A stretch of DNA of 50,829 nucleotides, taken from positions 1 to 50,829 of the forward strand of contig JAHYJL010000003.1 of NCBI GenBank assembly GCA_019429045.1, in the 5' to 3' direction. How positions within the stretch are numbered: position 1 is the first letter of the stretch; each line of letters starts with the position of its first letter. Position numbers and translations under genes: made by a program. Source of the DNA: Bacteroidales bacterium. Its GTDB lineage: Bacteria; Bacteroidota; Bacteroidia; Bacteroidales; JAGOPY01. The notes under the pieces were generated by a model. The model ran no database searches and had not been told where the DNA came from. It saw only the letters and a program-made list of their open reading frames with translations. Of this stretch, positions 17,377-42,367 are shown piece by piece.

Positions 17377-17419
17377 TTTTTAAAAATTAAAGAAAATCAT
17401 CACTAAAAACATTATCGCC

Positions 17420-18805: not shown

Positions 18806-18861
18806 TCTGTTCTTTTTAAATCATTTATTCACCTATTTATTAATCCTTAATCTTTAAAATT

Positions 18862-19254: not shown

Positions 19255-19323
19255 TCCCGCTTCCCTTTACGGGATAATGAAGGACTTATCTGTATTATAC
19301 AAGTTAATTAAATTAATTGTTGT

Positions 19324-19731: not shown

Positions 19732-19803
19732 TCCTGTTTTCTGTCCTTTTGCTAAGAGTCGATCCGCCAACCCATTTGAACACCGAATATAATATTATAA
19801 GGT

Positions 19804-21577: not shown

Positions 21578-23251
21578 ATGACAACAGCTAAGCGAAGTAT
21601 CATGAATATAAAAATTATACTCCCGTTATTCCTTCTATCATTTATACTAATGGCCACTGCAAATCTTATGGCTGGCGATCCCATTGAAGTTACCATCACC
21701 GATGACCAGGAGATCTGCTACGGGGCAACCCCGGACACCCTGAAATCAAGGGTAACGGGCGGCAGTGGAAATTACACATACCTGTGGCAGTCATCACTGG
21801 ATGGAGATACCTGGAATATTATCCCCGGTGCAGACGACAGTATTTTTGTACCGCCACCGCTCTATGTCACTACCGCCTATCGTCTTATTGTCGATGACGA
21901 TGTGCCTACCGGCAGGGATACATCGAACATCGTGACCATCAGGGTTTATGATGAACTGCTAGCCAACACCATAACGGGTGGCATTACACCGATATGTTAC
22001 GGGGATGATGCCGGAACATTATATTCTCATGCAAGCGGAGGGGCAGGAGGCCATGTCATCAAATGGTACAATGAAAACAATGTATATCTGTTCACAGGCC
22101 CTGTCTTTCCTGTCGGAATTTTATTGGCCACAACGCGCTATTACTATATTGTGGAAGACGATGAATGCGGTTCAGATACAAGTTCAATTTTCTCCTGCAC
22201 TGTTTACCCGCAATTGACGGCTGGAAACATTACAGGGGGCAATTCGCCCATATGTGCCGGCGATAACGGCGGTACGCTAACGGCAAACGCTACAGGGGGC
22301 TCCGGAAATTATAGCATAAAATGGTATAATGAAGCCGGCAATCAACTCGGCACCGGCGAAACTTATAATGTCGGGACACTGAACATCACCACATCTTATT
22401 ATTATATAGTCACTGACGTTGGCGCCGATTGCGGCAGCAAGACCAGCGCATCATTACAGATCGAGGTCGTTGATTTCATTACAGCCAGCATTCTGATCAC
22501 ACCATCCCCACCCAACATTTGCAGTGGCGACCAGGTATCATTTACAGCCATGCCTACCCCGCCGAATCAGCTCAACCAGTATCAATGGTTCATAAATGAT
22601 GAACCCTCAGGCAACGGGCAAGTCATGACAACGGACGAAATCCTGGAAAATGCAACGGTGAAGGTACTTGTAATATACCCTGAAGGAACGTGCGTCACGA
22701 ATAACCCGGCAACCGGAACATATGATTTAACGGTAAGGCCAATTCCTGACACAGCCGCCATTATCTCAAAACCCCTTATTAATCCGGTGGTGCTCATTTA
22801 CCCGGGTGATACAACAGGCATGAATTACAGCTATCAGTGGTACTTAAACGGACAGATCATCACCGGCGCCACATCAAAATATTATTACCACAGCAGCGGG
22901 TTATCATATGGCACATACACCGTCAGGGTGACCAATCAATACCTGTGTTACGTCGAACTGAGCTATGATCATGGTTTGGATAAAAGTGGCCTATTCAGCA
23001 AAGAAGATATCTTCATGATTTTCCCTAACCCTAACCAGGGGGAATTCATGATTATCCTCAACGACGACGTGGTCAGCACAAATTCATATATAGTGCGGAT
23101 TACTGACATTAACGGCAGGGTGAAATATCATGAAACCCTGCCTGCAGGCGACCGGTCGGTCCGGCTGACCGGTTTCAGTAAAGGGATTTACCTGCTTGAA
23201 CTGACACTGGATGATAAACAGCAACAGTGCCGGAAATTAGTGGTATATTAA
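21578..23251 (+). CDS. T9SS type-A sorting-domain protein with Ig-like/SprB-like repeats
   Basis: Signal peptide, repeated ICxG...GGSGNY..W units, YQWY motifs, CTD IFPNP...G...KGIYLL...KLVVY. Starts 1 bp after the vgrG stop (alternative start 21602). Confidence 0.85.
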   Translation: MTTAKRSIMNIKIILPLFLLSFILMATANLMAGDPIEVTITDDQEICYGATPDTLKSRVTGGSGNYTYLWQSSLDGDTWNIIPGADDSIFVPPPLYVTTAYRLIVDDDVPTGRDTSNIVTIRVYDELLANTITGGITPICYGDDAGTLYSHASGGAGGHVIKWYNENNVYLFTGPVFPVGILLATTRYYYIVEDDECGSDTSSIFSCTVYPQLTAGNITGGNSPICAGDNGGTLTANATGGSGNYSIKWYNEAGNQLGTGETYNVGTLNITTSYYYIVTDVGADCGSKTSASLQIEVVDFITASILITPSPPNICSGDQVSFTAMPTPPNQLNQYQWFINDEPSGNGQVMTTDEILENATVKVLVIYPEGTCVTNNPATGTYDLTVRPIPDTAAIISKPLINPVVLIYPGDTTGMNYSYQWYLNGQIITGATSKYYYHSSGLSYGTYTVRVTNQYLCYVELSYDHGLDKSGLFSKEDIFMIFPNPNQGEFMIILNDDVVSTNSYIVRITDINGRVKYHETLPAGDRSVRLTGFSKGIYLLELTLDDKQQQCRKLVVY

Positions 23252-23294: not shown

Positions 23295-23582
23295 ATGGAA
23301 GAATTGGAAATTGTATTGTTTTACCAGGATACGGAATATTCCATGAAGGTGGAAGATCTGACTAAACCTGTAGTTGATGCTATCAAAGAAATCGTAGAAG
23401 CTTTACAGCTTTCATGGCGGGATGGCGGGGGCAATCCCATTACCTACCACCTCGGCCGTACGACAGGCTCTGAGGAGGAAATACTTAAACCGCGCATAAA
23501 AGGGAAAGACCAGACATTATATGACTATAACATCAGGAGCGGCGACAGGCTTATCCTGATCAAGGAAGTGATCGCCGGATAA
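23295..23582 (+). CDS. ubiquitin-like beta-grasp protein (YukD/EsaB-like) ending in Gly
   Basis: 95 aa; QTLYDYNIRSGDRLIL closely parallels ubiquitin RTLSDYNIQKESTLHL; C-terminus ...EVIAG. Confidence 0.85.
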   Translation: MEELEIVLFYQDTEYSMKVEDLTKPVVDAIKEIVEALQLSWRDGGGNPITYHLGRTTGSEEEILKPRIKGKDQTLYDYNIRSGDRLILIKEVIAG

Positions 23583-23610: not shown

Positions 23611-24369
23611 ATGGCAAAAATCGTCATTTCAAAAGGAGAAGAAAAAATTAACAACATTTTTGAGGGTTATAAGAAAACCGAGTTATCACCCAGGGGAAGA
23701 AAATTGTTGAAAGAATGGAGAAAGATCGACTTTCTCTGTGAAAACAGCGACGTGATCAAGTACATCATCAGAAAGCGGAACAGGGAGGGGTTGCCGGTTG
23801 AGTATGAGATCATTTATCATCTGAACAGCATCATCGGTGTGAACGAGCCCGTCGAAGCGACAAGGGAAGTGAGCGGGGAAAAGATATCCAGGCCCTGGCG
23901 GCAGCCCGTTTATGGTAAGGAACACCACCTGAGCATCGTTTTACCCAACAATTACCCCGGAGCGTTCGGAGGAAACCCTGAATTTGTCATGTTGTCAGAC
24001 ACCTGGCACCCCAATATCCGCGCGACGGGTAAATTCAAGGGCAGGATATGCCTTAACGACAGGGATCTTGGCGTTGCCTGCGGCCTGGATGAAAGGATCA
24101 TCCGGGTAGGTAAATACCTGCAATACCAAACCTATTGGGCCATCGACAGCTACCCGTGGCCGGAAGACCAGGTTGTTGCAGAATGGATAAGGGAAGAAGC
24201 TGAACCTGCCGGCTGGGTGAATGTCAACGAAGGGATCTATACTGATAATTCGAAACTGTACAAAACACCACTACTGTTTCATAAAAACTACCTGCAGGAG
24301 ATCCAGGATATTGGTTCACCCGGAGGTAAAAACACCGGGAACGCTCCTATTACTTTAAAAATGAATTAG
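23611..24369 (+). CDS. ubiquitin-conjugating enzyme E2 (UBC fold)
   Basis: RKLLKEW helix, LSIVLPNNYP...NPEF, WHPNI...GRICL with candidate catalytic Cys147. Confidence 0.9.
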   Translation: MAKIVISKGEEKINNIFEGYKKTELSPRGRKLLKEWRKIDFLCENSDVIKYIIRKRNREGLPVEYEIIYHLNSIIGVNEPVEATREVSGEKISRPWRQPVYGKEHHLSIVLPNNYPGAFGGNPEFVMLSDTWHPNIRATGKFKGRICLNDRDLGVACGLDERIIRVGKYLQYQTYWAIDSYPWPEDQVVAEWIREEAEPAGWVNVNEGIYTDNSKLYKTPLLFHKNYLQEIQDIGSPGGKNTGNAPITLKMN

Positions 24370-24419: not shown

Positions 24420-25826
24420 ATGAAAATATTTATTGTAATCCTGGTTTCACTGCTTTCCTTCTCCCTGATGGCCCAGGAAGCCGAAGTGCTGATGGTGGGG
24501 GAAAACCTGCTCGGATCCAAAGACATCGCATACAGCAGAAAAATTACGATCAGCGTCACGCCAAATGTAACCTATAAAATAGATGAAAATAAAAATGAGT
24601 TCCTGATCATTCATTTCGCGACAAAATGGTATCAGAACAATGAAATATTTGTTCCAAAGACGGAAAAGATATATATGATCAACGATCCGGAATATTTTAT
24701 GCAGAACTATGGCAGATCAAACAGCAATTGGAAGGTTCCCAAGCGTGTTCAGGATTTAATCTCAAATACCTTTGAGCTATCACCAGGCGCCATTTTTGAC
24801 TATACATTGGAAGAATTACCCGATATTTTCATTAATAAAACAAAACCAATTACTGTCTCCATTACGAAATACAAGAACGAAACCATCGTTCTCGTCGCCT
24901 CTTTTTACATGGGAACAGAGAAGTCTTTTTTATTCTCAGGGTTCACGGTCGATCAGAAAGCCGAACCGCTCATCTGGAAATTCAAGCTGCCGCCGCCGTC
25001 AGACAGGCCCGAATGTGGTGAGAAATACGATTACTATGTGTCCCGCATCAATAAATTACAAGCCAAACAAAAACTGCAGCAACTGGGTGAAATATTCAAG
25101 ACAGGGCTGAATAAATCAGAGCAGGCACTTAGAAGTGAGAAACAGGAACTGGAATCGATCAAAATGCTTAACCAGAGCCTGCAGGATCTGAATAGTGAAA
25201 TTACAGATGATGTTTCTAAAATGGGTTGTGAAAACCTTAACAGTATCAAAACCAATATTGAAGGATACCTTAAATCGATATCTTCAAACGAGATTGATAT
25301 CAGCTTCAGGTTAAGGGATCTCAATAAGAAACTGGATTCTCTCGGCCAAATTGGAGTGATGACGGTAAAAAGACGTGAATCATTAAGTGACAATAGTATT
25401 GTCATTAGGGAAATATATCACGGCTTAAAGAAATTACAATGGGAATTCAATCAGACGAATGCTTTCGACAGTATTCTGCTGGCAGATATCAAAGCCAGGC
25501 TGGATAATATTTACAAGATCGAAGATGAGAATTTCCAGGGGATGATACAAAACAAGGCCATCACATCTGAAGTTGCCTTGCTTAAAGATGAATTTGACAA
25601 TTATTATAATGCTTCTATAATCATTATCAACAATATCAGAGCCGAAAGCAGGGGAGAAAAAACGACCGGCAGTTTTGCTGACCATTCTGCAAAGGCAAAA
25701 AGGAAGAAGTTTTCGCCCTGGATTATTGTTTCCGGTCTGATTATCGTACTGACGATCATTGGGATAAAATTCCGTGAGCCGATCAAGCGGGCATTATCGT
25801 TGAAAAAGAAGGTAAAATATAAATAA
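24420..25826 (+). CDS. single-pass membrane protein with periplasmic beta domain and coiled coil
   Basis: Signal peptide, helical heptad-rich middle, C-terminal TM (PWIIVSGLIIVLTIIGI) and basic tail; ectodomain resembles that of the next gene. Confidence 0.75.
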   Translation: MKIFIVILVSLLSFSLMAQEAEVLMVGENLLGSKDIAYSRKITISVTPNVTYKIDENKNEFLIIHFATKWYQNNEIFVPKTEKIYMINDPEYFMQNYGRSNSNWKVPKRVQDLISNTFELSPGAIFDYTLEELPDIFINKTKPITVSITKYKNETIVLVASFYMGTEKSFLFSGFTVDQKAEPLIWKFKLPPPSDRPECGEKYDYYVSRINKLQAKQKLQQLGEIFKTGLNKSEQALRSEKQELESIKMLNQSLQDLNSEITDDVSKMGCENLNSIKTNIEGYLKSISSNEIDISFRLRDLNKKLDSLGQIGVMTVKRRESLSDNSIVIREIYHGLKKLQWEFNQTNAFDSILLADIKARLDNIYKIEDENFQGMIQNKAITSEVALLKDEFDNYYNASIIIINNIRAESRGEKTTGSFADHSAKAKRKKFSPWIIVSGLIIVLTIIGIKFREPIKRALSLKKKVKYK

Positions 25827-25837
25827 CAGTCATATTG

Positions 25838-28783
25838 ATGATAAAATATTTTCATTTATCTTTTTTGCTCTTCCTGGTCACCGGACCGGCATGGGCACAG
25901 CAGGAGATCGGTCCAGGCAAAACAAACCTGCAAAAACAACAGCTCATTTTTGCCAAAACCATTTGTGATATAACACCACAGGTTCAGTATGACACAAACA
26001 AACGGCATGAATTGACCATTAAATTCTATGCTGACTGGAAAAATAAAGATGGAGAACCGTTTCAAAACAACGAGCATTATTTGTACCTGATAGACAATTT
26101 TGACAAGTGGATGATTGGTATTAAGGAAAATGATAAATACTTGATCAATTTTTCCCCCAGACAAAAACAGTCAATTCTACAGGCCACTGATCAAATCACA
26201 GAAAATGGAATGAGTATCAAGCCGGTCTACTCAAATGGATATCTTGAACTGATAAATGTGTCGCAACCGCTGAAACTCAGGATTGACGGAAAGGATGGTG
26301 ACCTGATAACCCTGAATTTATTTTTCACCTATGTCACTGCTAAACCGAAAAACAAGAATATCGAAGATATTCCCCGGCAGCTTGCATGGTCATTTTCGCT
26401 ACCAGGTAAAACACCCGTTCCCGATGAACATGTGGCCATAATGCAGGAAGAAACAGAAATAGCCGAACAGGAAATCAAAGACACAATAAAGAAAGAGAAG
26501 GAGAAGGAGATAATCGCTCCCAGACCTGAGCCCCCGGTCAAAGAAAAGGTAAAGAAAGAAGATACTTCGCGAAAGGATATTGAAAATAAAATTGATTCAC
26601 TGGCGAAAAAATATAATGTGATATATCATGAACTGGCTTCACAGTTCGAATCAATGAAGGGAATAATCAACCCGGGGATGGCTGATATCGGAAACCGCAT
26701 CAGACAGAACGATGAGAGGTTTTCAATGGTTCAGGAAATGTTCTCCGTTAAAGATCAGCTTTCGGAGGAGTTGTTTGAGAATATGTCACTGGGGCTAACT
26801 TCCTGTAAGTCCGATAATCAATATTGCGACAGTTCCAATACTGTGTATCTGACAACCATCCGCACTTTCAAATCAAAGATCGAACAGGAAATCAGCCATT
26901 TGCTATCTGAATTTCAGAACATTGACAGAAGGACCATGCCACTCAAAGGGACAGAGATCCAAAATAAGCTGAAAGATCTTTTCAGTGAAGTCTCCGTCAT
27001 TGAAGCCACGCTGGAAAAATTACAAACATCAATCAATGCCCAGAATAAAGACATTTACAGTCTTTTTATGGAACTCGAGGGAAAGGTGGAGTTGGCGGAA
27101 AAGATCAGTGCATTTGACCTGGCATTCAATCAGGTTAACCTCCAGCTTGAAGGCCTGGTAGTGGATTACGACAATCTCAAAAGTAATTTTGAAAACAAGA
27201 AATTCAGCAAAGGATATTTCAAGTGGGTCAGGCAGTCTTATTTAAAAAAGGCTGATAATATTATTAATTCTTATGCTGTCATAAATTCTACATTTGATTC
27301 CTTATCACATAGCAAAAGGAGCTCTTTCCAGCAATATGATCTTGATCCGCTGATTGAGTCCCAGCAGGGATTTGAAAAAGAAAGGTCTGGCTTTGTCAAC
27401 CGTGTTGAAATATTGAAAGCCAGCATCATAGAGTCGGAATACGAACCTTTTCCTTTTTTATACACGGCCCTGGCTATTATATTCATCTCTATTCTCATCT
27501 TCGGGACTTATGTGTACCTGATGGCATTACGAAGAAAAAAACTGAAAATCAGCCCGATTTTGTCAACATCACGACCTGCTAAAAATGCCATAAAAATACA
27601 GCCCACTATGGTTACAGCATCAAACAAGGGAAAAGGGCTGGCGGATTATCTGAAACCCAACAAGGACCGCTACCTTGAGTTGAACATGTCGCATGAATGG
27701 GCGGATAGTTGCGTCAAAAATGTCTATTTTGAGCGGGACTGCATTATCAAGACCTATCGATTCTTCGAAGATTCCATTCATTCGGTCGGAACGACCGAGC
27801 ACTCCGCCAATGAAACCGGTGGTTATCTGATTGGCCAGTGGGACTACAATCCTGATGAACCTGATAAATACGACGTATCGCTGGAAGATTTCATCGAACC
27901 GGGAGATGATGCTTCTTTTTCAAAGTATCAATTGAATTTCGGCGCCAAAATAGGGGTGAAACTGCAATCTGTGCTCGAGAACATGCGGCAAAAATCGAAC
28001 CGCGATTTTGTCATGACGGCCTGGTTTCACAGTCACCCGGGATTGAAAATATTTCTTTCGGATTACGATCTCCAGGTTCAGAATGATTTTGCAGGAACCC
28101 AGAACAAGCACCGGATGCTGGCTTTGGTACTGGATCCTTATACACCTGCCTGGGATCTGGGTATTTTTCCTTACAAGGCCAATGGCGATATGAACAACGC
28201 CGCTGATTCCATACGCTTTTTCAGTTTCGATTCCATTTATCACTGGGCGCTTACCCCTCCCCGCCGGGAAATAGTTCAGTTTGATAACTATTTTGCCCAC
28301 GACATCTCCAGGGCTTATTCCGGGACCTCTATCCGGAATATCCTGTTCAGCCTCCCCGGCATCCTGGAGATCAAACGTTTTATTGAGAATGCAAAACTCC
28401 AAACCGGCAAAAACTTCACAACTGGCTTATTTTCAGGCTTTCAACATAACCCCGGATCACATTATGCCGACCTGGCCATTGAACAGGTTTTAAGTGAGGA
28501 AGACTGGCAACAGATCAGCAAGCCTGATGAAAAGAAGATCATAGGGGCTATTTTCTTCCTGGCTTCTGTTTCGGAAGATAATGCAAAAGCGCTGAATGAT
28601 AAAATTATACAGTTAACGGAGACATACGGGAAGAACCTGGTCATCGCTTTATTTTCTCCTGCTGATGAAGGTCTTTCCCTTTTACCTGCTGACATTATCA
28701 CCAGGTCGTTGATCTCAGCACCCGACAAGTCAGCACGCGTTCCATTGCCGGAACTGATTGAATGGACCAGAAAACGCAAGTAA
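25838..28783 (+). CDS. membrane-anchored JAB/JAMM (MPN+) metallo-isopeptidase with a second degenerate MPN repeat
   Basis: Signal peptide, coiled coil, TM near 27450-27530, then ETGGYLIG...AWFHSHPGLKIFLSDYD (E...HxH...S..D) and ALVLDP. Confidence 0.88.
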   Translation: MIKYFHLSFLLFLVTGPAWAQQEIGPGKTNLQKQQLIFAKTICDITPQVQYDTNKRHELTIKFYADWKNKDGEPFQNNEHYLYLIDNFDKWMIGIKENDKYLINFSPRQKQSILQATDQITENGMSIKPVYSNGYLELINVSQPLKLRIDGKDGDLITLNLFFTYVTAKPKNKNIEDIPRQLAWSFSLPGKTPVPDEHVAIMQEETEIAEQEIKDTIKKEKEKEIIAPRPEPPVKEKVKKEDTSRKDIENKIDSLAKKYNVIYHELASQFESMKGIINPGMADIGNRIRQNDERFSMVQEMFSVKDQLSEELFENMSLGLTSCKSDNQYCDSSNTVYLTTIRTFKSKIEQEISHLLSEFQNIDRRTMPLKGTEIQNKLKDLFSEVSVIEATLEKLQTSINAQNKDIYSLFMELEGKVELAEKISAFDLAFNQVNLQLEGLVVDYDNLKSNFENKKFSKGYFKWVRQSYLKKADNIINSYAVINSTFDSLSHSKRSSFQQYDLDPLIESQQGFEKERSGFVNRVEILKASIIESEYEPFPFLYTALAIIFISILIFGTYVYLMALRRKKLKISPILSTSRPAKNAIKIQPTMVTASNKGKGLADYLKPNKDRYLELNMSHEWADSCVKNVYFERDCIIKTYRFFEDSIHSVGTTEHSANETGGYLIGQWDYNPDEPDKYDVSLEDFIEPGDDASFSKYQLNFGAKIGVKLQSVLENMRQKSNRDFVMTAWFHSHPGLKIFLSDYDLQVQNDFAGTQNKHRMLALVLDPYTPAWDLGIFPYKANGDMNNAADSIRFFSFDSIYHWALTPPRREIVQFDNYFAHDISRAYSGTSIRNILFSLPGILEIKRFIENAKLQTGKNFTTGLFSGFQHNPGSHYADLAIEQVLSEEDWQQISKPDEKKIIGAIFFLASVSEDNAKALNDKIIQLTETYGKNLVIALFSPADEGLSLLPADIITRSLISAPDKSARVPLPELIEWTRKRK

Positions 28784-28801: not shown

Positions 28802-31291
28802 ATGAAACTGCTCAATCCCTGTCATATGCAACTACATCTATTAATGTCGCACATTTTCCGGATGATTAAATTACCGGGACTGGTTTTGCTGGTATTTCTG
28901 ATTACTTTCATTACGCATGCACAAAAGCGTGCAGATGCCGATCTGCAAATCATCGACATTCAGATGAAGCCTGAAAACCTGGCCAAGCTAAGTGATACGA
29001 TGACCGTTAAGTTCAACCTGATGAGACCGGGAGGGACTGAAGATGCAGACAGAATTCTGGAATTGTCACCAGGGGATTCCATGAGGGTTTCTGTGAAGGA
29101 ATTCCTCGGCAGAAAGGAGGAGAGGATAAAACCCGTATTTATCCCGGGCAGCCTGAAAAAGTTAAGGGATCATGGTAAAATGAGATCTGAAATCCCGGAA
29201 GACTATTACATTTCATTGCTGATTGACAAAAGCGGTTCTATCAATCAGCATGACATGGATAAAATAAAATCGGCTATTTATGAGCTGGCCGGGATGGTTA
29301 AAACCGGCAATTTATTTTATTCCTGGTTTGATGAAGATATTTCCGAAAGCAGGGTGGTTACCCAGGCCAACATAAACGATCTCGATTTCCATGTTTCCAG
29401 CACCGGCAGTTCCTGCATGTACAATGCCATTTTCACGAAAATGATGGAATTTGATTCCACGAAAGATGTGCCCAATCTTCAGTATGAGGGGGCTTACAGG
29501 CGAAACAGGGCTGTTGAGATGGCGCCGGATGGTAATAAATTCCTGGTTATCATTACAGATGGCCGTAATGACATACAACAGAACCCAAAATATCACAACA
29601 CCCTGTTCAGGGTCATCCGCGAACCGGAACTCATCAATACCGCCGAATTATACAGAAACAAATTATTCATTTACGCTATCAGTTTCGGCGGGGAATTGCT
29701 GGATGAAGCTTTCCTGGAGATGATAACGGCCGCCAGCGGCAATCGTTATGGCAATATACTGACCAGTCCCGACAATATTCTGGAGGACTTTAACAGCCTT
29801 GGTAAAAAAATCGCGGAGGAAAAATGGGACTATGAAATTCGTTTAAGGTATGAAAATCCAAAAAAATACAGGGGAGAGACACGTACCCTGCATTTAGAAA
29901 TCAACTCCTATAAACCGGATCTCTTCGTTGCATACGGTCAGGCAACCTATGGGGAAGGTTACGGCAACTCCCTTTACCCGATGACCATTGGTGAGCCAAA
30001 ACGCCAGGTCATGGTCATGCTCGGAGGCCTTGTCGCAGGGATCATCATCTTTCTGCTGGTGATGTTCATTATACAATTGATCATCCCTTTGATCAAGAAT
30101 AAGATATTTGTCATAAAATATGTCAAGAGATATAAACCACGGGAGCACGAATTATTCAAAGAATGCCAGTTTTGCGGAGATCCGCTGAATCCCGGCGACA
30201 AGGTGGTGGTCAAATGCAAGCATGTCGTTCACCATTTATGCTGGAAAGAATATGGACATATGTGCCCGGAATATGGGCAAAATTGCAACGATGGCCAGGA
30301 AAATTTCTTTGACATTACAGATCCCTTCTCCAAAAAGAATAAGATCTATTACCTGAGCTGGGTGCTATATGGCATGCTGGGCGGTTTCCTGTCCTGGTTG
30401 CTATATGTGGCACTGATCAAGTGGGAACAGGTCTTTGCATTCAGCATATGGCTAACCGAGTGGATCAGGCCAACCATTACAGAAAGCAACCTCGGTTCTT
30501 TCAAGTTTAAGATAGCGCCATTCCTGATCGTGGGCACGCTGATGGGATTCTTTCTTACCGCGTTCTTCTCCTTTGTGGAGGAATACCGCCATAAAAACCT
30601 GATGATTTACGGCAAGATACTGCTCAGAAGTATCCTGGGCGGGGTTGCCGGATTTGTCGCGTTTCTATTGGGAAGCATTATCCTGATCCTGATCAACAGG
30701 CCCGCTACAGTCTATTTCGATTGGATCCCGTGGATATTCTTCGGAGCCGCCATTGGCCTGGTCATGTCCATTAAAACCACTATTGTCTGGAAGCACGGGC
30801 TTATCGGCGGATTGATCTCCATCATCTTTTGTTTTATCGTTATTTATGCCTTTATCGGGGAGCTTGAGGAAAATGCCATCCTGGTAGGTATTATGATATA
30901 CGCGGCAGGATTAGGTGTATCGATTGCCACCATCAGGCTGCAGTCAGAGCACTTCTTCCTGAAGATACTGCAGGGGAAAAAGAATCAGGATATCATCCCG
31001 GTCCATAAGTGGATGAGTTCCTCCGGAGGCCATAATGAAGTGTATCTGGGCAGAAGTTTCGCCTGCGAGATTCAGATGAACTGGGAAAAAAACAATGAAG
31101 AGATCGCACAAAAGCATTCCAAGATGTATATCAATACCAGGGGGGTGCCGGTTATCACCAACCTGGAAATCGGCAAGACAACCAATTTCAACGAACGGTT
31201 TGATCTGGATACCGGAAAAGAATACGAGCTTTACAATGGCGTGAGGTTTAAAATCGGACAAACTGTATTTCAATATATTGAGACAGATTAG
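28802..31291 (+). CDS. vWA - TM - RING finger - multi-TM - FHA-like protein (candidate membrane E3 ligase)
   Basis: MIDAS DKSGS and IITDG; RING-like CQFC-x13-CKHVVHHLCW-x6-CP-x5-C (30164-30286); several TM helices; C-terminal LGRS...H...ELYNGVRFKIG. Start may be 28862. Confidence 0.82.
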   Translation: MKLLNPCHMQLHLLMSHIFRMIKLPGLVLLVFLITFITHAQKRADADLQIIDIQMKPENLAKLSDTMTVKFNLMRPGGTEDADRILELSPGDSMRVSVKEFLGRKEERIKPVFIPGSLKKLRDHGKMRSEIPEDYYISLLIDKSGSINQHDMDKIKSAIYELAGMVKTGNLFYSWFDEDISESRVVTQANINDLDFHVSSTGSSCMYNAIFTKMMEFDSTKDVPNLQYEGAYRRNRAVEMAPDGNKFLVIITDGRNDIQQNPKYHNTLFRVIREPELINTAELYRNKLFIYAISFGGELLDEAFLEMITAASGNRYGNILTSPDNILEDFNSLGKKIAEEKWDYEIRLRYENPKKYRGETRTLHLEINSYKPDLFVAYGQATYGEGYGNSLYPMTIGEPKRQVMVMLGGLVAGIIIFLLVMFIIQLIIPLIKNKIFVIKYVKRYKPREHELFKECQFCGDPLNPGDKVVVKCKHVVHHLCWKEYGHMCPEYGQNCNDGQENFFDITDPFSKKNKIYYLSWVLYGMLGGFLSWLLYVALIKWEQVFAFSIWLTEWIRPTITESNLGSFKFKIAPFLIVGTLMGFFLTAFFSFVEEYRHKNLMIYGKILLRSILGGVAGFVAFLLGSIILILINRPATVYFDWIPWIFFGAAIGLVMSIKTTIVWKHGLIGGLISIIFCFIVIYAFIGELEENAILVGIMIYAAGLGVSIATIRLQSEHFFLKILQGKKNQDIIPVHKWMSSSGGHNEVYLGRSFACEIQMNWEKNNEEIAQKHSKMYINTRGVPVITNLEIGKTTNFNERFDLDTGKEYELYNGVRFKIGQTVFQYIETD

Positions 31292-31312: not shown

Positions 31313-32170
31313 ATGAGAAAAGCATTCATAACATCGCTCCTGACGATTGTCGTCACCCTCGGTCTTTCGGCTTCCGACCTGAAAGGTTACCCCAGGAAAT
31401 CCCTGTTTGTGAACCTGTCAGCTGATTATTCACGGTTGTATAATAAAACGATTTATAACGACTCGCCATGGAACGCCCAGGGGGGGCTTGGTTACAGTTT
31501 CGAAGCAGGGTACCTGATGCGGTTGCGAAAATCAGTGAGCCTCGGTTTCGGCGCAGGCCTGAGTTCATACTACAGTGAAATCAAGATGGATTCATATCAA
31601 ACAACATATCCAACTCTTGATGTTGACGGGGATAGTTATACCGAGTTCATCCAGGCAAATGGATTGGTGGAATCAACCCGGATCACCACATTAGACATAC
31701 CGGTATTTCTTGAACTTGGCAATGCCAACACCAGCAAGGTCAGCTATTATGTCAGGCTTGGAGTAAAGATATCAACGCCTGTCGCGTATAATTTCACTCA
31801 TTCAGGCAGCATGTCGGTCAGTGGAAACTACGCGCAATATTTTGTCCGGCTGGAAGGCATCCCGGAGCTGGGTTTTGTCGATAATGCCCCGGTAATCAAA
31901 TCATCGGAATATGATCTCAACCCGGTGAACCTCTCGGTATTGTTGGCCGGCGGCATCACCATTCCTGTTTCGGATTACATCATATTCAAGCTGGGGGCCG
32001 ATCTCAACTATGGCCTTATGAATATTTCATCTTATGAGCAGGAAGTGTCAAAGGATCCCGGTTTTATCAATATTTACAATAACCTGCTGACAGAGCCGAA
32101 CAGTAAAACAATCTGGCAGTCTGTAGGGTTTGAATTCGGGATCATATACATCCTGAAATCCATTTATTGA
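31313..32170 (+). CDS. outer-membrane beta-barrel protein (PorT/OMP_b-brl-like)
   Basis: Signal peptide, LDIPVFLE, DLNYGLMNI, terminal SVGFEFGIIY strand. Confidence 0.75.
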   Translation: MRKAFITSLLTIVVTLGLSASDLKGYPRKSLFVNLSADYSRLYNKTIYNDSPWNAQGGLGYSFEAGYLMRLRKSVSLGFGAGLSSYYSEIKMDSYQTTYPTLDVDGDSYTEFIQANGLVESTRITTLDIPVFLELGNANTSKVSYYVRLGVKISTPVAYNFTHSGSMSVSGNYAQYFVRLEGIPELGFVDNAPVIKSSEYDLNPVNLSVLLAGGITIPVSDYIIFKLGADLNYGLMNISSYEQEVSKDPGFINIYNNLLTEPNSKTIWQSVGFEFGIIYILKSIY

Positions 32171-32196: not shown

Positions 32197-33402
32197 ATGA
32201 AGGGAATATCTATCGGCAATCGAAACAGGAAATGGGGAGAGGAGGTCTTTTCCCTTTTGTCATGGTTTGATGAAACAAAGGTCAGAAATGCCAGTGTTAT
32301 GGTCGTTGGTGCCGGCGCATTGGGTAATGAGGTCATTAAAAACCTGGCGCTGTTTGGCATTGGCAATATCCTGATCGTCGACTTTGATACCGTAGAACAC
32401 AGCAACCTTTGCCGGTCGGTATTGTTCCGTCCCGAGGATGCCGAAGGCAATGCCATGAAAGCGGAAGTGGCCGCCAAAAGGATCAGCGAGATCAATCCAT
32501 ATATAAACGTAAGTTACATTGCCGGGGATATCGGCACCGATGTGGGCCTGGGCCATATCCGGAAAATGGATCTTGTCATCGGCTGCCTCGACAGCCGGCT
32601 GGCGCGTTACCTGATCAACCGGAGCTGCTTCAGGGCCAATAAAACATGGATAGACGGAGGTATTGAAAACCTGGAAGGCAACGTGAGGATATTCACGCCC
32701 GGGGTCAATTGTTATGAATGCAGCCTGAACGAAGCCGACCTTGAAATGCTGTTTTACCGGACAGGATGTCCTGACATAGCCAAAATAAATGTGGTCCAGG
32801 GAAGGATTGCCACCACGCCTATCAGCTCATCCATCATCGGCGCCATACAAACGCAGGAGGCGTTGAAATTCATCCACGGTTTCAATGAAAATTCGGAGAA
32901 ATTCAAATGCAATACCCTGAACGGAAAAATGCTCAAATATGACGGCATGTACCTGACCCTGAAAAGCTACAGGCTGGAAAATTACGAAGAAGATTGCATG
33001 AGCCACGAAGTCTGGGAACCTGTAGTGAGAGGGGAAGGATTAAGCGCCGGTATGACCATCGCACAAGCCCTTGAAACCCTGAAGGGTTTGCTCGGATGCG
33101 ACGACGTTACTATTAACCTGATGAATAACAAGCTGATATATCAGCTTGTCCCGGAATCGACCGATGAGGAGATCAATGTGATCCTGCCCGAATCCAAAGT
33201 GTCTGCGTATATAGAAGAAAACAACATAACCAAAGATCCCAGGGAAAGAGTCTTTCAAAGATTTTACGAAAGCATTGATGCTGATTTCCCGTATCCGCAC
33301 CTGACACTCAGGGAAATTGGTATACCTTATTTTGACGTCCTGAACATAACGGCAGGATCCGAAGTGCAATATGTTGAACTTTCAGGCGATGAAACCCACT
33401 AA
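32197..33402 (+). CDS. ThiF/MoeB-family E1-like ubiquitin-activating enzyme
   Basis: VVGAGALGNE, DFDTVEHSNLCRSVLF, KAE, GCLDSRLAR, CYEC, candidate catalytic Cys191 (RTGCP), C-terminal extension. Confidence 0.92.
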   Translation: MKGISIGNRNRKWGEEVFSLLSWFDETKVRNASVMVVGAGALGNEVIKNLALFGIGNILIVDFDTVEHSNLCRSVLFRPEDAEGNAMKAEVAAKRISEINPYINVSYIAGDIGTDVGLGHIRKMDLVIGCLDSRLARYLINRSCFRANKTWIDGGIENLEGNVRIFTPGVNCYECSLNEADLEMLFYRTGCPDIAKINVVQGRIATTPISSSIIGAIQTQEALKFIHGFNENSEKFKCNTLNGKMLKYDGMYLTLKSYRLENYEEDCMSHEVWEPVVRGEGLSAGMTIAQALETLKGLLGCDDVTINLMNNKLIYQLVPESTDEEINVILPESKVSAYIEENNITKDPRERVFQRFYESIDADFPYPHLTLREIGIPYFDVLNITAGSEVQYVELSGDETH

Positions 33403-34324
33403 GAACCTGGCTAAATCGATAAAAGCGAACATCTCCGACATCAAGGCGGAGGTGATCATGGCCGACCTGGCCGACCGGGGGATGGATGCTGATAAAATGC
33501 TGGTTGCTTGCAAAGGGCTGTTCAGAAGGAATTATGAAAAAGATGTGGCCAATGTTCAATTTGACCAGGTCATAGATTATTTGGTCTTCCAGCTTTCCCG
33601 CGACGGGCTATATGATTTACTGCCTGAAGGGCTTTTTCATGAGATGTGCATTTTCAGCAGCCTGGGTTCGGAAGAGCGAAGAAAGCAGTTTGCAAGGCAA
33701 AAGCAGGAAGAGGCGAATGCCAGGAAGTTCTTTTTGCCCTATGAAAATGAATTCTTACAGCAACGGGTCAGAATTGAGCAGGAGATTATCCGTCTGCACA
33801 AAGATCCGCTCGGTGCATTTAAAAGTCTGTTTTCAAGAAAAAGTATTTTCCCCGATGATTATCACCGGAGGTTCCTGAAATTCTATGCTTTTTCAGGCGA
33901 AATCAAGGGTAATATTGAACTGACAGCCGCTGCTCTCTCAGAAATACTTGAAAAAGAAGTAGTTGCCAGAAGCTATTACAGTGATTTGAGAATTGATTGT
34001 CCGGATGACAAAGGCTCGAATATACTGGGTGAAAATTTTATCAGCAGTGAAGGGTTCATTGAAAACCAGCTTTACTGGGAATTTACCATCGTCATTGACG
34101 AGAATGCTGAAATAGACCGGTATGCCGCCATGGATAAAGGTTTCATACAAGCCCTGGTCACCAGGTTTTATGACACATATGTTCCTTTTGAGATAGAAAC
34201 AGTGACGAAATTCGACTGCCGGGCAGCACAGCCCTTCATGCTTGGCGAAAGATCATCACTCCCCGCCGGAAGCCTGCAGGATCAATTACAGGAATGTTAC
34301 CTTGGCTACAATGTTACACTATAA
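33389..34324 (+). CDS. tssG: T6SS baseplate subunit TssG
   Basis: LSRDGLYDLLPEGLFH, EEANARKFFLPYENEF. Start overlaps the E1 stop (ATG 33389, or 33371). Confidence 0.88.
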   Translation: MKPTKNLAKSIKANISDIKAEVIMADLADRGMDADKMLVACKGLFRRNYEKDVANVQFDQVIDYLVFQLSRDGLYDLLPEGLFHEMCIFSSLGSEERRKQFARQKQEEANARKFFLPYENEFLQQRVRIEQEIIRLHKDPLGAFKSLFSRKSIFPDDYHRRFLKFYAFSGEIKGNIELTAAALSEILEKEVVARSYYSDLRIDCPDDKGSNILGENFISSEGFIENQLYWEFTIVIDENAEIDRYAAMDKGFIQALVTRFYDTYVPFEIETVTKFDCRAAQPFMLGERSSLPAGSLQDQLQECYLGYNVTL

Positions 34325-34363: not shown

Positions 34364-35449
34364 ATGAGAGAAAAAAATGAATACAAGCAAATAAACTGGA
34401 CTGACGGGATGAAGATCAACAAGGATCATTTTATCGGCCTGGAAAACTATTTCACCCAATGTGATGCGGAGATCAGAAGGATGAACATCGATCAATACAG
34501 CTATGGATTGCTCCCATTGACCGATAAAAATGACACGAACCTTGAATTCGAGCTAATGACGGATGATCAGAATCATCTGAAGGTAAAACTCAAGAAATGC
34601 CAGGCCATAGACCCGCAGGGGTACCGGATTGACATTTCAGGCGAAAGCCTGGAGGCAACCTTCAGTTTATCTCAATTCCAGGAAAGCTCATTTTACCTGG
34701 CCATATCAGCAGATCCTTTTACAAGGGTGGCCCACGGGCAGGCCGATGCCGGGGAAAGCCAGCTCCGACAACCTTTCGTGGTACCGGAATATAAATTGCA
34801 CCTTGCACCGTCAACCATGAATATTTCATCCGCTTTCGGGAATACCATCATGCCGCTGGGCAAGATTATGATCATAAACAACCGGCCCGAAACTGACCGG
34901 AACTACATTCCACCCTGTATGTCGGTCAACAGCCACCCTGAAATGATCAGATTTTTCGATTCCGTTCATCAAAACATCATCGCACTGGAAAGAAATATCG
35001 TAGAGCTCATTTCCGAAATCAATCTCAAAACGACTTCCAATGCCCTGATCAACATTATCCTGCACATTGCCGGGAGCGTACTGCATCATTTGAATGGCAA
35101 GATAACAGAATACAGATGGTTCACCGCCACCAGGCCGCCCATCATACTTATATCCAATATTATCAGCCTGGCGCGCACGGTCAGAAATGCCTTCGACACC
35201 CGGATACCTGAGGAACGGGAAAGATTGCTGAATTACCTTTCGGACCATTTCGACATCAATCCCGCCAAGTTCAAACAATTGCTGGATGTGACCATCGGCA
35301 TCGATTATCAGCACAATGATATCAGGGAATCGCTGGTGAAAGCAGAAGACTTTATCACTGTATTTTCACAACTGATCAACGAATTAAAGAAGATGGAATT
35401 CATTGTTGGTGAGCCAAGGAAGAAACGCATTGATATCATTATCCGCTGA
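34364..35449 (+). CDS. tssK: T6SS baseplate subunit TssK (subtype iii)
   Basis: INWTDGMKINKDHF, YGLLP, CQAI...GYRIDI, YIPPCMSV.SHP, Y.HNDI. Confidence 0.88.
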   Translation: MREKNEYKQINWTDGMKINKDHFIGLENYFTQCDAEIRRMNIDQYSYGLLPLTDKNDTNLEFELMTDDQNHLKVKLKKCQAIDPQGYRIDISGESLEATFSLSQFQESSFYLAISADPFTRVAHGQADAGESQLRQPFVVPEYKLHLAPSTMNISSAFGNTIMPLGKIMIINNRPETDRNYIPPCMSVNSHPEMIRFFDSVHQNIIALERNIVELISEINLKTTSNALINIILHIAGSVLHHLNGKITEYRWFTATRPPIILISNIISLARTVRNAFDTRIPEERERLLNYLSDHFDINPAKFKQLLDVTIGIDYQHNDIRESLVKAEDFITVFSQLINELKKMEFIVGEPRKKRIDIIIR

Positions 35450-35928
35450 TGAGCTTCAAAAATTACAAAATACCGCTCGATTTCAGCGAGATCATGGATG
35501 CCGGCAGGGCTGAACAGGATCACAGACGGTCTGCACATCTGTCGATTAAAAGAACTGACTCCCTGAAAAAGTCAATTGATGAAAATATAGAACTTGTATT
35601 GACGACACACCACGGGGAGCACAAGCACAATAAGGATTACGGTTTTATTTTATGGGAGCGCGAATTTGAAAATATTGAGATTGAGAAATTCAACACCCAT
35701 AACAACCCGAAGCAGGGCATAGAACTGATGTTACGAAAGGCGCTGACCAAATACGAGCCCCGCCTGAAAAATATCAATGTCGAGATCCTGTTCATTTACA
35801 AGAAAACCTTCAAAGGCAAGCGCATCAAATATTTTGTGGAACTTACCGTAAAGGGGGCCATTGCGAACAAGCTGGAGGAACCTTACGAAAAATCATTTCA
35901 GTTCACCATGGGGCCTTTATTAAAGTAG
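35449..35928 (+). CDS. tssE: T6SS baseplate gp25-like subunit TssE
   Basis: YKIPLDF, SIDENIELVLTT..GE...YG..LWE, YEPRLKNI; TGATG stop/start overlap with tssK. Confidence 0.88.
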   Translation: MSFKNYKIPLDFSEIMDAGRAEQDHRRSAHLSIKRTDSLKKSIDENIELVLTTHHGEHKHNKDYGFILWEREFENIEIEKFNTHNNPKQGIELMLRKALTKYEPRLKNINVEILFIYKKTFKGKRIKYFVELTVKGAIANKLEEPYEKSFQFTMGPLLK

Positions 35929-35955
35929 TAACAGGGAAGATCAATAAAGATTGTA

Positions 35956-37803
35956 ATGGAAAACAGGAACGATATAAAAAAGAGGATGATGGCGGTTGCC
36001 GCTAAAACATGGGGGTTGAGCAGCCGGGAGATGGAATCCATCGATCCGCTGATACCGCTGCTAATTGAGGCCAACGCCGCCGAACTGGAAAAGGTTTCCG
36101 GCTCCGTAGATGAGGCGGGGCAGCGCATGGCGGCGAAGCTGATGGAGATGCTGACCCCGGAAAACCTGCTCAACCCGGCGCCGGCCATGGGAATCCTGCA
36201 GGCGCTTCCGTTTGATCCCACGGGAAGTATCGATGAAGACAACCAATTTTACTATTTCAAAAGAAATCCTTTTGAAGATGGCGAAGCAGACCTCGAGATA
36301 TTTTTTACACCTGTAGCCGAACACAGGCTTTTCAACGGAAAAGTCGATTTCATCGCATCCGGGAATACTTTGTCGCGCACCGAGGAGATGGGGGAAAAAA
36401 GAGTGGTGGCGAAAAACGCTTACGGCAGGAATTTGTCGAATGAACTCTGGATCGGGGTCAGCCTTCATAAGTCGGTACGTTCTCCCGAAGGATTGTCTTT
36501 TTACTTTGAAACCGAAAACCTGAGCGACAGCGAGGAGCGGGTCTTTTACCAGGCGCTGCAAAAAGCGCAGTGGGAAATAAATGGCACTGCCATTGAAACG
36601 AAGCCGGGATACTATGATAAGGATAGCACGCTCCGGGGCAGGAAAATCACTTTTCCGCACACCGATTTCAACCGGTCGCACACCGTTTCACAACATGTGC
36701 TGGATTTTTACAGGAAACACTTCGTTTCGGTGGCCAATAATCCATGGGATTCAATCATCAGCCAGGACGCCTATCTCAAGTATCCGGACGAATTCCAGAA
36801 AATATTCCATCCGGATGATCTCAAACCACTTACCAACAGGTTATTGTGGTTCAAAATCCGGTTCCTGCCGCATATCCCCGGGCATATCCCCGACCGGGTC
36901 CGTTGCAGCATCAACTGTTTCCCTGTCATAAACCGCCGTAAGGAGAAGTCGGTCATTTCAGGCCTGGACCGGATCAAGGAACTCCGGCTGAATCCATACG
37001 AAGTTTTCTTTGATTTAGCTGAAATACACTGCGACAGTAAACTACAGGTGATTGTCGGCGACCAGCTTCCTGCAGATATGGAGGGCAAAGCGCTGCTGAC
37101 CCTTCGAAAGGACAACATCGGCAGGTTCAACACCACGAACGCGGTGGAAAAAATCCAGCAGATGATCGATGCCTACCGGAATGATTATCCCGCTTTTGCA
37201 AAGATAAAGGGGATTGACCACGAGACCATCGACAAGCTTTACGACGCCATCAAACCATTTGAGCATGCCACCGATCACCTGCAGGATTTTGCCTCGGGCA
37301 CCACTCCTTACCTGATGTTGCGGACAGATGCCGGCAAAGAAAGTGCGGAGGTGGAGGTCAGTTACTACCTTACCTGTGGCAGCCTGGGCAACGGGATCAT
37401 GAAGGGGATGCATATTAATTACGAAAGCGCAGAATTGCTCAGGGACAGGATCCTTTTAATGACCACCACGATGGGCGGAACCGACCGGAAAAAAGACGAG
37501 GAGCTGATCCGCAGTTTCCGGTATGCTTTGCTGACCAGGGGGAAGATCGTCACAATGGAAGATATCAGGGCCCTGACCGAGGCGCAGTTTGGACGCTTTG
37601 CCGAATCCATCGATGTGAAAAAAGGAGCCGCCATGTCGCCCGACTATGGTTCCGGGCTGCAGCGCGTCATCGAGATAACGGTCAGGTTAAAAAGGGACAG
37701 TCAGCTCACGCCGGAAGAAATCAAATACCTGAAGGATGACCTGGAGCAGCAACTGGTGGAAAGATCCACGAACGTGATGCCGTTCAGGGTGGTTTGCAGT
37801 TGA
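35956..37803 (+). CDS. tssF: T6SS baseplate subunit TssF
   Basis: IKKRMM..AAKTWG, DPLIPLLIEA, LTPE...PA..IL.A.P, INCFPVINR, YALLTRGKIVT.EDI. Confidence 0.9.
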   Translation: MENRNDIKKRMMAVAAKTWGLSSREMESIDPLIPLLIEANAAELEKVSGSVDEAGQRMAAKLMEMLTPENLLNPAPAMGILQALPFDPTGSIDEDNQFYYFKRNPFEDGEADLEIFFTPVAEHRLFNGKVDFIASGNTLSRTEEMGEKRVVAKNAYGRNLSNELWIGVSLHKSVRSPEGLSFYFETENLSDSEERVFYQALQKAQWEINGTAIETKPGYYDKDSTLRGRKITFPHTDFNRSHTVSQHVLDFYRKHFVSVANNPWDSIISQDAYLKYPDEFQKIFHPDDLKPLTNRLLWFKIRFLPHIPGHIPDRVRCSINCFPVINRRKEKSVISGLDRIKELRLNPYEVFFDLAEIHCDSKLQVIVGDQLPADMEGKALLTLRKDNIGRFNTTNAVEKIQQMIDAYRNDYPAFAKIKGIDHETIDKLYDAIKPFEHATDHLQDFASGTTPYLMLRTDAGKESAEVEVSYYLTCGSLGNGIMKGMHINYESAELLRDRILLMTTTMGGTDRKKDEELIRSFRYALLTRGKIVTMEDIRALTEAQFGRFAESIDVKKGAAMSPDYGSGLQRVIEITVRLKRDSQLTPEEIKYLKDDLEQQLVERSTNVMPFRVVCS

Positions 37804-39608: not shown

Positions 39609-39681
39609 TTTTCTGTTATTTTCTGGATACTCAAATTCGTTTTGTATATAAGAGGATGATTTATAGTTAATAAGAATTTTA

Positions 39682-41757: not shown

Positions 41758-41769
41758 AGATGGAAGAGT

Positions 41770-42213: not shown

Positions 42214-42367
42214 AGTCTGGTATATTTCTTTCAGGAATTTCTCTAATACCTCAAGCAGCACTGCTGGTATTGAAAGATAATGCCTGGCTGTTATGATTTC
42301 AAAGATAAAGTATTTTTCATGATGAAGCAAGAAAATTTAACTGCCGGCTTGATTTTCTTATTCCTCT

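Follow-up and report, generated by a model that had tools for sequence, protein, structure and literature searches.

Eukaryotic quality control and receptor signaling characteristically employ RING ubiquitin ligases (E3s) that are embedded in membranes, and a bacterial counterpart would be a tractable model for both the mechanism and the origin of such ligases. Whether such a counterpart exists is the question raised by a gene at positions 28802 to 31291 (forward strand) of contig JAHYJL010000003.1 from a Bacteroidales bacterium (GenBank assembly GCA_019429045.1), of which we analyzed the stretch from position 1 to 50,829, referred to as the window here. The gene is an uninterrupted open reading frame (ORF) whose translation gives a product of 829 amino acids, the vWA-RING protein in what follows. 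From the N to the C terminus, the order of its predicted domains is a signal peptide, a β-sandwich, a von Willebrand factor A (vWA) domain, a second β domain, a first transmembrane (TM) helix, a RING-H2 finger, six TM helices, and a tail with the fold of a forkhead-associated (FHA) domain. The gene stands among genes for a ubiquitin-like protein (Ubl), E1 and E2 enzymes, and a JAMM peptidase, and this cassette lies within a type VI secretion system (T6SS) locus. We consider it probable, with moderate confidence, that the vWA-RING protein is the membrane-embedded RING-H2 E3 of a complete Ubl cascade that is coupled to the T6SS.

A candidate RING-H2 finger in a large protein family

A homologue search over 5.8 billion proteins returned 91 homologues, mostly of about 800 amino acids and derived from Bacteroidales, Lentimicrobium, and Prevotella metagenome bins. 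Their source names, where given, are mostly “hypothetical protein” or “VWA domain-containing protein,” and NCBIfam has no name for the vWA-RING protein. An exhaustive profile search yielded 717 proteins at E ≤ 0.001 and 319 clusters (50% identity) at E ≤ 1e-30. We also scanned one genome per species across 185,579 species, which gave 110 relatives, from which 80 loci were kept; these are all of the Bacteroidales type except for a few contigs binned elsewhere. The family is therefore large and conserved behind its uninformative names, and its carriers include the cultured commensals Bacteroides hominis, Palleniella intestinalis, and Xylanibacter muris, which permit ordinary genetics and biochemistry.

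The feature that would make this protein a ligase is a cluster of cysteines and histidines, C455-x2-C458-x13-C472-x-H474-x2-H477-x2-C480-W-x6-C488-x6-C495, encoded at window positions 30164 to 30286. An earlier, sequence-only reading of this DNA had proposed a RING-H2-like finger with exactly this position and spacing, and the conservation of its eight ligands (C3H2C3) shows that the cluster is not a product of chance. Each of the eight putative zinc ligands is kept in 47 or 48 of the 48 sequences of the homologue alignment (sole outlier, P0092), and W481 is kept in all 48. Likewise, the ligands are invariant in the 53 sequences of an alignment of the RING region (A3), and the full motif is present in 79 of the 80 genome loci, with a spacing of 13/7/6 in 78 of them and a one-residue insertion in L004.

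Profile and fold comparisons agree with the RING-H2 assignment. Searched against the PDB, the A3 profile matched Pirh2 (E 3.9e-5) and RNF165 (E 8.7e-4), followed by Arkadia, RNF13, RNF24, and synoviolin, and the 37 PDB rows at E ≤ 10 are RING-type fingers, mostly from E3 ligases, with the exception of an arylsulfatase and two nanos chains. An AlphaFold2 (AF2) model of the RING alone (pLDDT 71, no zinc modeled) superposes on Ark2C/RNF165, RNF12, RNF13, and RNF38 with root mean square deviations (rmsd) of 1.9 to 3.2 Å over about 60 columns, and the top 24 Foldseek rows for this model are all RING-H2 E3s, none of them at E ≤ 0.001. Eleven RING-type Pfam families match the RING fragment, all below their thresholds, and zf-RING_2 and Prok-RING_1 also match the whole protein below threshold. 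Given that the Prok-RING_1 model (PF14446) has a cutoff of 29.1 bits and scored 17.1 bits on the whole protein and 21.3 bits on the RING fragment, the vWA-RING protein appears by its sequence to be a relative, but not a member, of this family as the model stands. According to the cited section of a 2024 review (PMC11354881), the last two ligands of prokaryotic RINGs are separated by a longer insert, and forms without two of the ligand pairs occur; both features are matched here, by the widened last pair (C-x6-C in place of C-x2-C) and by the ligand-less sister forms described below. From profile and model, we read the cluster as a divergent but genuine RING-H2 finger with a widened last ligand pair. 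A complex prediction of the E2 with the RING fragment (residues 440 to 515) and two zinc ions gave a score of 0.00, which, obtained without control runs, speaks neither for nor against binding.

Domain architecture and predicted topology

The AF2 model of the whole protein, built with 48 homologues, has a mean pLDDT of 86.3 and a pTM of 0.68, with the blocks of the RING region at 92 to 95. It consists of a β-sandwich, an α/β domain, a second β domain, a long helix, a small zinc-finger-like module, a helical bundle, and a C-terminal β-sandwich. Its Foldseek and VIA matches are dominated by the vWA domain. At the N terminus, hydropathy indicates a signal peptide or hydrophobic segment at residues ∼21 to 40 (28862 to 28921; helix 8 to 39 in the model), and the true start of the protein may be M21, at position 28862, instead of M1. 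Directly after the segment comes Gln41, a residue shared by at least 90% of the 48 homologues; a glutamine after the signal peptidase site is typical for exported proteins of the Bacteroidota. Then follow the N-terminal β-sandwich, which is predicted to be periplasmic from its position and is defined by AF2 strands (residues ∼46 to 113; 28937 to 29140), the vWA domain (residues ∼133 to 340; 29198 to 29821), and the second β domain of the model (residues ∼344 to 396; 29831 to 29989).

The very hydrophobic TM helix 1 (residues ∼403 to 432; 30008 to 30097) is followed by seven K/R within 16 residues, and then by the RING. After the finger, hydropathy and the AF2 model place hydrophobic helices at residues ∼518 to 540, 570 to 592, 606 to 630, 640 to 658, 663 to 685, and 690 to 712, which form a six-helix TM bundle (residues ∼518 to 712; 30353 to 30937). 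The short loops of the bundle alternate in charge as expected, the predicted inner loops being rich in K/R. Since the number of helices between RING and FHA fold is even, the tail (residues ∼717 to 829; 30950 to 31288) would be located on the same side as the RING. Hydropathy, charge distribution, and the AF2 model thus all fit a topology in which the vWA domain is periplasmic and the RING and FHA tail are cytoplasmic, in agreement with the domain order and topology of the sequence-only reading. In a search of the ESM Atlas with residues 440 to 829, the best hit was a Bacteroidota cluster at 0.97, and the next clusters, with FHA/YscD_cpl annotation, scored below 0.9 (Armatimonadota, Planctomycetota); one of them carries UQ_con on 11% of its members. 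We regard these clusters as leads only.

The gene belongs to a conserved E1-E2-Ubl-peptidase cassette

The genes around the vWA-RING gene all lie on the same strand, in the order ClpV, TssB, TssC, two Hcp/TssD, VgrG, an immunoglobulin (Ig)-like protein sorted by the type IX secretion system (T9SS), Ubl, E2, a 468-amino-acid protein, JAB, vWA-RING, an outer-membrane barrel, ThiF-type E1, a 317-amino-acid protein, TssK, TssE, and TssF. The Ubl (23295 to 23582) has 95 amino acids, ends in IAG directly before the stop codon, and is YukD-like (Pfam YukD E 0.0013, below the cutoff). The E2 (23611 to 24369) is a 252-amino-acid protein with the motif W-H-P-N…Cys147, assigned to the UBC type from this motif and from PDB profile matches: its profile (A2) matches 70 PDB chains at E ≤ 0.01, and the 60 of these that were listed are all ubiquitin-conjugating (UBC) E2s, the best being UBE2K (E 8.8e-6). 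The ThiF-type E1 (32197 to 33402) matches Pfam ThiF at E 1.4e-53. The peptidase (25835 to 28783) is a 982-amino-acid JAMM/JAB protein predicted to consist of a periplasmic N-terminal part, one TM helix, and a cytoplasmic domain with the motif HxHx7SxxD (HSHPx7SxxD). The three remaining neighbors are the 468-amino-acid protein (24420 to 25826), with a predicted signal peptide, periplasmic domain, coiled coil, and C-terminal TM helix; the outer-membrane β-barrel protein (31313 to 32170; Pfam OMP_b-brl_2); and the conserved 317-amino-acid protein (33371 to 34324). Neither the 468- nor the 317-amino-acid protein has a Pfam family.

To assess the conservation of these partners, we searched the 80 loci with the window proteins by tblastn, where misses include cuts at contig ends and divergent sequences. 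The E1 was found in 77 loci, the JAB in 76, the E2 in 72, the 317-amino-acid protein in 71, and the Ubl in 69, all matches having the same order and strand. The other neighbors are more variable (TssE in 63 loci, TssF in 62, TssK in 37, VgrG in 20, the outer-membrane barrel in 10, and the 468-amino-acid protein in 2). Catalytic motifs are intact: HPN…C in the E2 of 72 of 72 loci, HxHx7SxxD in the JAB of 76 of 76, and the terminal IAG in 66 of 69 Ubls. The E2 and Ubl that the sequence-only reading had presumed are therefore present beside the gene, together with an E1 and a JAMM peptidase. The E3 assignment is the strongest of those that we draw, because, wherever it was seen, the RING-H2 finger is accompanied by the same four partners (E1, UBC-type E2, Ubl with a terminal Gly, and JAMM peptidase).

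Two further observations concern proteins of the cassette. The 468-amino-acid protein is a paralogue of the N-terminal part of the 982-amino-acid JAB protein, the two sharing 21% identity over 314 residues (E 8e-5), and both proteins combine a signal peptide with a coiled coil and a single TM helix. Between the E2 and JAB genes, 60 of the 80 loci carry a conserved protein (391 amino acids at L076:6616-7791), which in L076 weakly matches Dsc3_C (E 0.0028, below the cutoff), a C-terminal domain found in one subunit of DSC, the membrane E3 complex of fungi; this match may be due to chance.

The cassette is nested in a T6SS locus without TssN

In the Bacteroidales clade of the window, the cassette is nested between vgrG and tssK-tssE-tssF. 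The upstream T6SS core (14327 to 21576, forward strand), assigned by Pfam, contains ClpV, TssB (a weak match), TssC, two Hcp, and VgrG, and the baseplate genes tssK, tssE, and tssF (34364 to 37803, forward strand; Pfam and NCBIfam) follow downstream. The scores of TssC (Pfam E 1.9e-170) and TssD (E 1e-33) indicate a contractile core of the Bacteroidota type. Pfam TssN, TssO, and TssR match no ORF of the window, and the vWA-RING protein itself matches neither the TssN (PF17555) nor the TssR models. TssN is also absent, by Pfam, from the whole genome of the window (94.4% complete), and five other carriers have no match over the cutoff. The same search was positive in two other genomes from a 201-genome sample of the order, with E values of 1e-74 and 1e-88.

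In this sample, TssC was found in three genomes, namely, the two with TssN (745 and 769 bits) and that of the window (568 bits). In the window's genome, TssC is single copy and within a few kilobases of the cassette (17420 to 18805), and likewise in five of five other carriers it is single copy and located just upstream, within a few kilobases of the locus (420 to 504 bits). In the clade of the window, the only T6SS is thus of the cassette type, without TssN. The difference between TssC scores of 420 to 568 bits in cassette-type systems and 745 to 769 bits in TssN-type systems hints at a separate T6SS lineage. Given that many Bacteroidales from gut and rumen have no T6SS locus other than the one that houses the cassette, and that the six T6SS-linked carriers tested lack TssN, which is the usual hub in Bacteroidota, the cassette may explain how this TssN-less variant is anchored or controlled.

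Several other genes near the cassette deserve mention. A Hanks-type Ser/Thr kinase (L076:20091-21416, Pkinase E 2e-38) lies downstream of tssF in 52 of the 80 loci, and a glucosaminidase-LysM protein occurs in 54; the two follow the baseplate genes in loci of the Prevotella/Muribaculaceae type, and neither has a tblastn match in the window or in loci L001 to L008. On the reverse strand of the window, a probable T6SS effector module (39024 to 42330) contains a PAAR gene (41770 to 42330), a DUF4123 chaperone gene (41101 to 41757), and ORFs of 357 and 194 amino acids, which match no Pfam family and may encode an effector and its immunity protein. Directly after vgrG, the gene at 21578 to 23251 (forward strand) encodes SprB/CHU_C Ig repeats with a C-terminal T9SS sorting domain, which makes it a T9SS cargo gene within a T6SS locus; it has a counterpart in 8 of the 80 loci.

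The vWA domain and the FHA tail

The vWA domain is well supported as a fold: Pfam VWA matches residues 138 to 324 (E 1.7e-5, 25.5 bits versus a cutoff of 23.8), and residues 133 to 340 of the AF2 model align with the integrin αX I domain (1n3y) with a VIA Z score of 18.4 and an rmsd of 2.5 Å over 174 residues. As stated in the sequence-only reading, the metal ion-dependent adhesion site (MIDAS) is intact after the signal peptide in the window protein (D142-K-S144-G-S146 and T252-D253-G254) and also in its nearer relatives, but it is lost in about half of the family: D142 is kept in 45 of 48 homologues, S146 in 36, S144 in 26, and D253 in 23, and the Prevotella/Muribaculaceae clade has a two-residue deletion in the DxSxS motif. 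Metal-dependent ligand sensing therefore cannot be the mechanism of the family as a whole.

The FHA tail shows a similar picture. Its model resembles the FHA domains of ArnA (5a8i, TMt 0.70) and MDC1 (3va4_B, TMt 0.78) in Foldseek, while the Pfam FHA match of the tail alone is below threshold (E 0.033, 15.0 bits versus 20.7), and there is a weak match to Yop-YscD_cpl (E 0.022 in the window, 1.2e-5 in P0186). The window protein has G750-R751 and H772, with Ala769 at the position of the phosphothreonine-binding serine, so that the fold, the GR and H residues, and the replaced serine claimed by the earlier reading all stand. Across the family, the canonical phosphopeptide-binding pair is missing: the arginine is found in only 10 of 48 homologues and the serine position is alanine in 40 of 48; among the 71 loci with a readable FHA motif, three have GR and one has SxxH. 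Invariant positions of the tail are instead K736 (48 of 48, predicted to be cytoplasmic), W737, G750, and H772. The most plausible function of the tail is docking that does not depend on phosphorylation. Its fold resembles the degenerate FHA domains that the cited text of PMC10765036 describes for EssC and MxiG/YscD in secretion machines.

The receptor part of the proposal is accordingly weaker than the ligase part, given the loss of the MIDAS, an FHA fold without the phosphothreonine-binding Arg/Ser, and the occurrence of the cassette without a T6SS sheath gene in distant relatives. An envelope signal might conceivably be converted into ligation by this protein.

Relatives without the zinc ligands and cassettes outside T6SS loci

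Four observations weigh against the idea of a RING E3 coupled to the T6SS. Two concern the finger itself: Foldseek gave no RING match at E ≤ 0.001 for the RING-only model, as mentioned above, and no Pfam RING model reaches its curated cutoff, the best being zf-RING_2 with 22.5 bits versus 27.3.

The third is that, among the 131 full-length proteins found in the best 150 library representatives, 72 have the strict zinc-ligand motif and 59 do not. These 59 proteins form a sister subfamily of the same architecture, in which the Pfam cutoffs for FHA and vWA are passed by six and five, respectively, of the six proteins tested. In the alignment, their site 1 ligands are replaced (e.g., a D-P-V-T stretch has Asp in place of C1 and Thr in place of C2), whereas site 2 partly persists. 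This shows that a zinc-binding RING is not universal in the wider family. No U-box or RING Pfam model matched the six sister proteins at E ≤ 1, and it is from the alignment that a U-box-like nature may be suggested. In the bold reading given below, which we think rather unlikely, the RING-bearing forms and those without zinc site 1 would record a RING-to-U-box-like transition within one bacterial family. The sister form is also flanked by E1, a Gly-ended Ubl, an HPN-Cys E2, and JAB (L086/L087 in G344:C65; L088/L089 in G526:C11). In both genomes, G344 and G526 (reported to be 100% complete), it is located after an nSTAND1 NTPase and before an Ion_trans channel, with PAAR, an eCIS_core ORF, and a TssR-like gene nearby.

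Finally, the coupling to the T6SS is not seen everywhere. Of 10 cassette-bearing genomes examined, 6 have an adjacent sheath gene and 4 are without a detectable TssC. In these four (G020, G148, G344, and G526), TssN was not found either, the contig of G148 being only 3.2 kb long. In G020, a divergent copy of the cassette (L081, G020:C685 1548-18543) comprises E1, YukD-like Ubl, E2, a 241-amino-acid ORF, JAB, and vWA-RING; instead of T6SS genes, SrfB (E 1e-213) and Virul_Fac/SrfC (E 1.8e-139) come next.

Proposed mechanism and alternative explanations

If the vWA-RING protein is an E3, the ThiF-type E1 would adenylate the exposed C-terminal Gly of the 95-amino-acid YukD-like Ubl and pass it on to the Cys of the UBC-type E2. 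The RING, placed on the cytoplasmic face between TM helix 1 and the six-helix bundle, would recruit the E2-Ubl conjugate and promote attachment of the Ubl to lysines on proteins kept in its vicinity, the FHA-fold tail serving as a phospho-independent dock, and the neighboring membrane-anchored JAMM peptidase would strip the Ubl off again. Both the E3 and the peptidase are predicted to be membrane anchored with large periplasmic parts, suggesting that conjugation takes place only on the inner side of the membrane, where it may respond to envelope events. In the clade of the window, the T6SS locus that surrounds the cassette has no TssN, and we therefore take baseplate or membrane components of the T6SS, or the E3 itself, as the likely substrates and control of T6SS assembly, anchoring, or recycling as the likely role. 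One may speculate that the invariant K736 is a Ubl acceptor. A bolder form of this idea, which we hold tentatively and think rather unlikely, is that gut and rumen Bacteroidales have a distinct T6SS subtype with anchoring by covalent Ubl, where the RING E3 ligates the free YukD-like Ubl onto the membrane complex or baseplate, the JAMM peptidase removes it, and TssN is replaced. In its boldest version, the conjugated Ubl would substitute for the built-in ubiquitin-like domain of TssN as the dock of the baseplate. If true, a bacterial secretion machine would be run by a eukaryote-like cycle of E1, E2, RING, and deubiquitinase, with rounds of assembly written and erased as a Ubl mark.

The main rival to an E3 coupled to the T6SS, which we regard as improbable but still the most serious, is that the five genes are a self-contained membrane Ubl switch for envelope signaling or conflict whose targets are not part of the T6SS, so that the position in the locus reflects co-regulation or capture. 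The cassettes beside SrfB/SrfC (L081 in G020) and beside nSTAND1 NTPase, Ion_trans, PAAR, and eCIS_core (L086 in G344) point in this direction, as do the four genomes in which TssC was not found, and the cassette must be accessory, since G099, a relative from the same genus, has no RING protein. However, the cassette is not merely adjacent to T6SS genes: in the window clade, dozens of genera share a gene order in which it is enclosed by vgrG on one side and tssK/E/F on the other. The genomes of this clade have a single TssC, beside the cassette, and no TssN, and even G344 retains TssR-like and PAAR genes nearby. A mainly structural function is distinctly less probable; here, vWA domain, TM bundle, and FHA fold would anchor the baseplate as a subunit of an alternative T6SS membrane complex, with the RING as a zinc-stabilized knob that has no ligase function. 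That these loci lack TssN, that the tail weakly matches Yop-YscD_cpl (E 0.022), and that the architecture persists in a sister subfamily whose zinc ligands are incomplete would all fit such a subunit. So would the vWA-like domain of TssR and the TM bundle and cytoplasmic β-grasp domain of TssN (as given in the cited part of PMC10781749) and the anchoring of cytoplasmic platforms by degenerate FHA folds in EssC and MxiG (cited part of PMC10765036). It would be hard to explain without ligation, though, why E1, E2, Ubl, and JAB are found with intact motifs in 69 to 77 of the 80 loci and in non-T6SS contexts, and why the sister form, too, is flanked by the four.

The two remaining explanations assign the protein to other known pathways. 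In the T6SS of Pseudomonas, Fha1 reads phosphothreonine marks written by the kinase PpkA, and the FHA tail could similarly read marks of the Hanks-type kinase encoded downstream in 52 of the 80 loci, with the RING as a secondary element. We consider this very unlikely: the window and its closest loci (L001 to L008) have no match to such a kinase, the canonical Arg/Ser pair is missing, and in the 49 of 49 kinase-linked loci that could be read, the Ser position is Ala and Arg is found in none. Least credible of all is an anti-phage defense system resembling Bil, Bub, or CBASS-Cap2, which ended up in a T6SS island by chance. The PADLOC E1-E2 (Cap2-like) models do recognize the E1 through their Rossmann part (E 1.8e-15), and there is a weak match of the JAB to PADLOC JAB (E 3.6e-6), but the Ubl, the E2, the RING protein, and the 468- and 317-amino-acid proteins have no match among the PADLOC models of 2023, the E2 resembles UBC-type E2s, the E3 and peptidase are predicted to be membrane anchored with large periplasmic parts, and synteny with T6SS genes is conserved.

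Relation to known systems

Prokaryotic systems with E1, E2, RING, and JAB are reportedly known from comparative genomics since the work of Burroughs, Iyer, and Aravind in 2011 (Mol Biosyst), whose abstract is said to propose that YukD-like Ubls may be conjugated. The prokaryotic E1/E2/RING-E3/JAB systems (Prok-RING_1 and Caldiarchaeum-type operons) share with our cassette a ThiF-type E1, a UBC-like E2, a RING, a JAB, and a β-grasp Ubl with a C-terminal Gly. In contrast to these systems, E3 and peptidase are predicted here to span the membrane and to expose large domains to the periplasm, the RING is inserted between TM helix 1 and the bundle of six helices, and T6SS genes surround the cassette. 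What may be new is the membrane-integral variant within a T6SS locus. A full-text literature search found no Ubl/E1/E2/RING cassette in a T6SS locus; Burroughs et al. 2011, which was outside the reach of that search, may already show the family. The vWA-TM-RING-6TM-FHA architecture is not described in the cited portions of PMC3417536, PMC3482391, PMC3239186, PMC7159879, PMC11601603, and PMC6274744, and those of PMC7159879 describe another vWA-linked system with a RING E3.

Among eukaryotic proteins, the closest in layout are membrane RING-H2 ligases, which have an ectodomain, a TM helix, and a cytosolic RING-H2 (the PA-TM-RING proteins RNF13 and RMR1) or a polytopic membrane part with a RING-H2 (Hrd1/synoviolin and gp78/AMFR). 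The RINGs of RNF13, RMR1, synoviolin, and AMFR are all among the profile and fold matches. The bacterial protein differs from these ligases in having a vWA instead of a PA domain, a RING before rather than after the polytopic bundle, a C-x6-C last pair, and a C-terminal FHA fold, which they lack; the profile and fold comparisons gave no sign of common descent of the whole proteins.

Bacterial secretion machines offer further parallels. The membrane complex of the Bacteroidota T6SS(iii) is formed by TssN-Q-O-P-R and includes proteins of the inner membrane that carry periplasmic domains (Bongiovanni et al. 2024, PMC10781749, in the part cited here). According to the same part, TssN is nearly ubiquitous and has five TM helices and a cytoplasmic ubiquitin-like domain that binds TssK. 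The likeness to our locus thus extends to the vWA-like domain of TssR, to the TM bundle and ubiquitin-like fold of TssN, and to a Bacteroidota-type contractile core; the difference is that the Ubl is a free protein here, predicted to be conjugatable, and not a domain, and that the genome of the window has no TssN. Cytoplasmic FHA domains without phosphate-binding residues also occur on membrane components of type VII (EssC of T7SSb) and type III (MxiG/YscD) secretion systems, and a YukD-type Ubl fold (YukD/EsaB and EccD) is found in the same machines as EssC, as described in the cited text of PMC10765036. Unlike in our cassette, the YukD Ubl of type VII systems is not known to be conjugated, and there are no accompanying E1, E2, and E3.

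Other genes in the window

Two genes of the window lie apart from the cassette and the T6SS genes. At 10721 to 11875 (reverse strand), next to small unassigned ORFs, there is a gene for an archaeo-eukaryotic release factor-like protein of baeRF family 3 (E 2.5e-42), and the gene at 47539 to 48759 (forward strand) encodes a full-length serpin (Pfam Serpin, E 4.1e-102).

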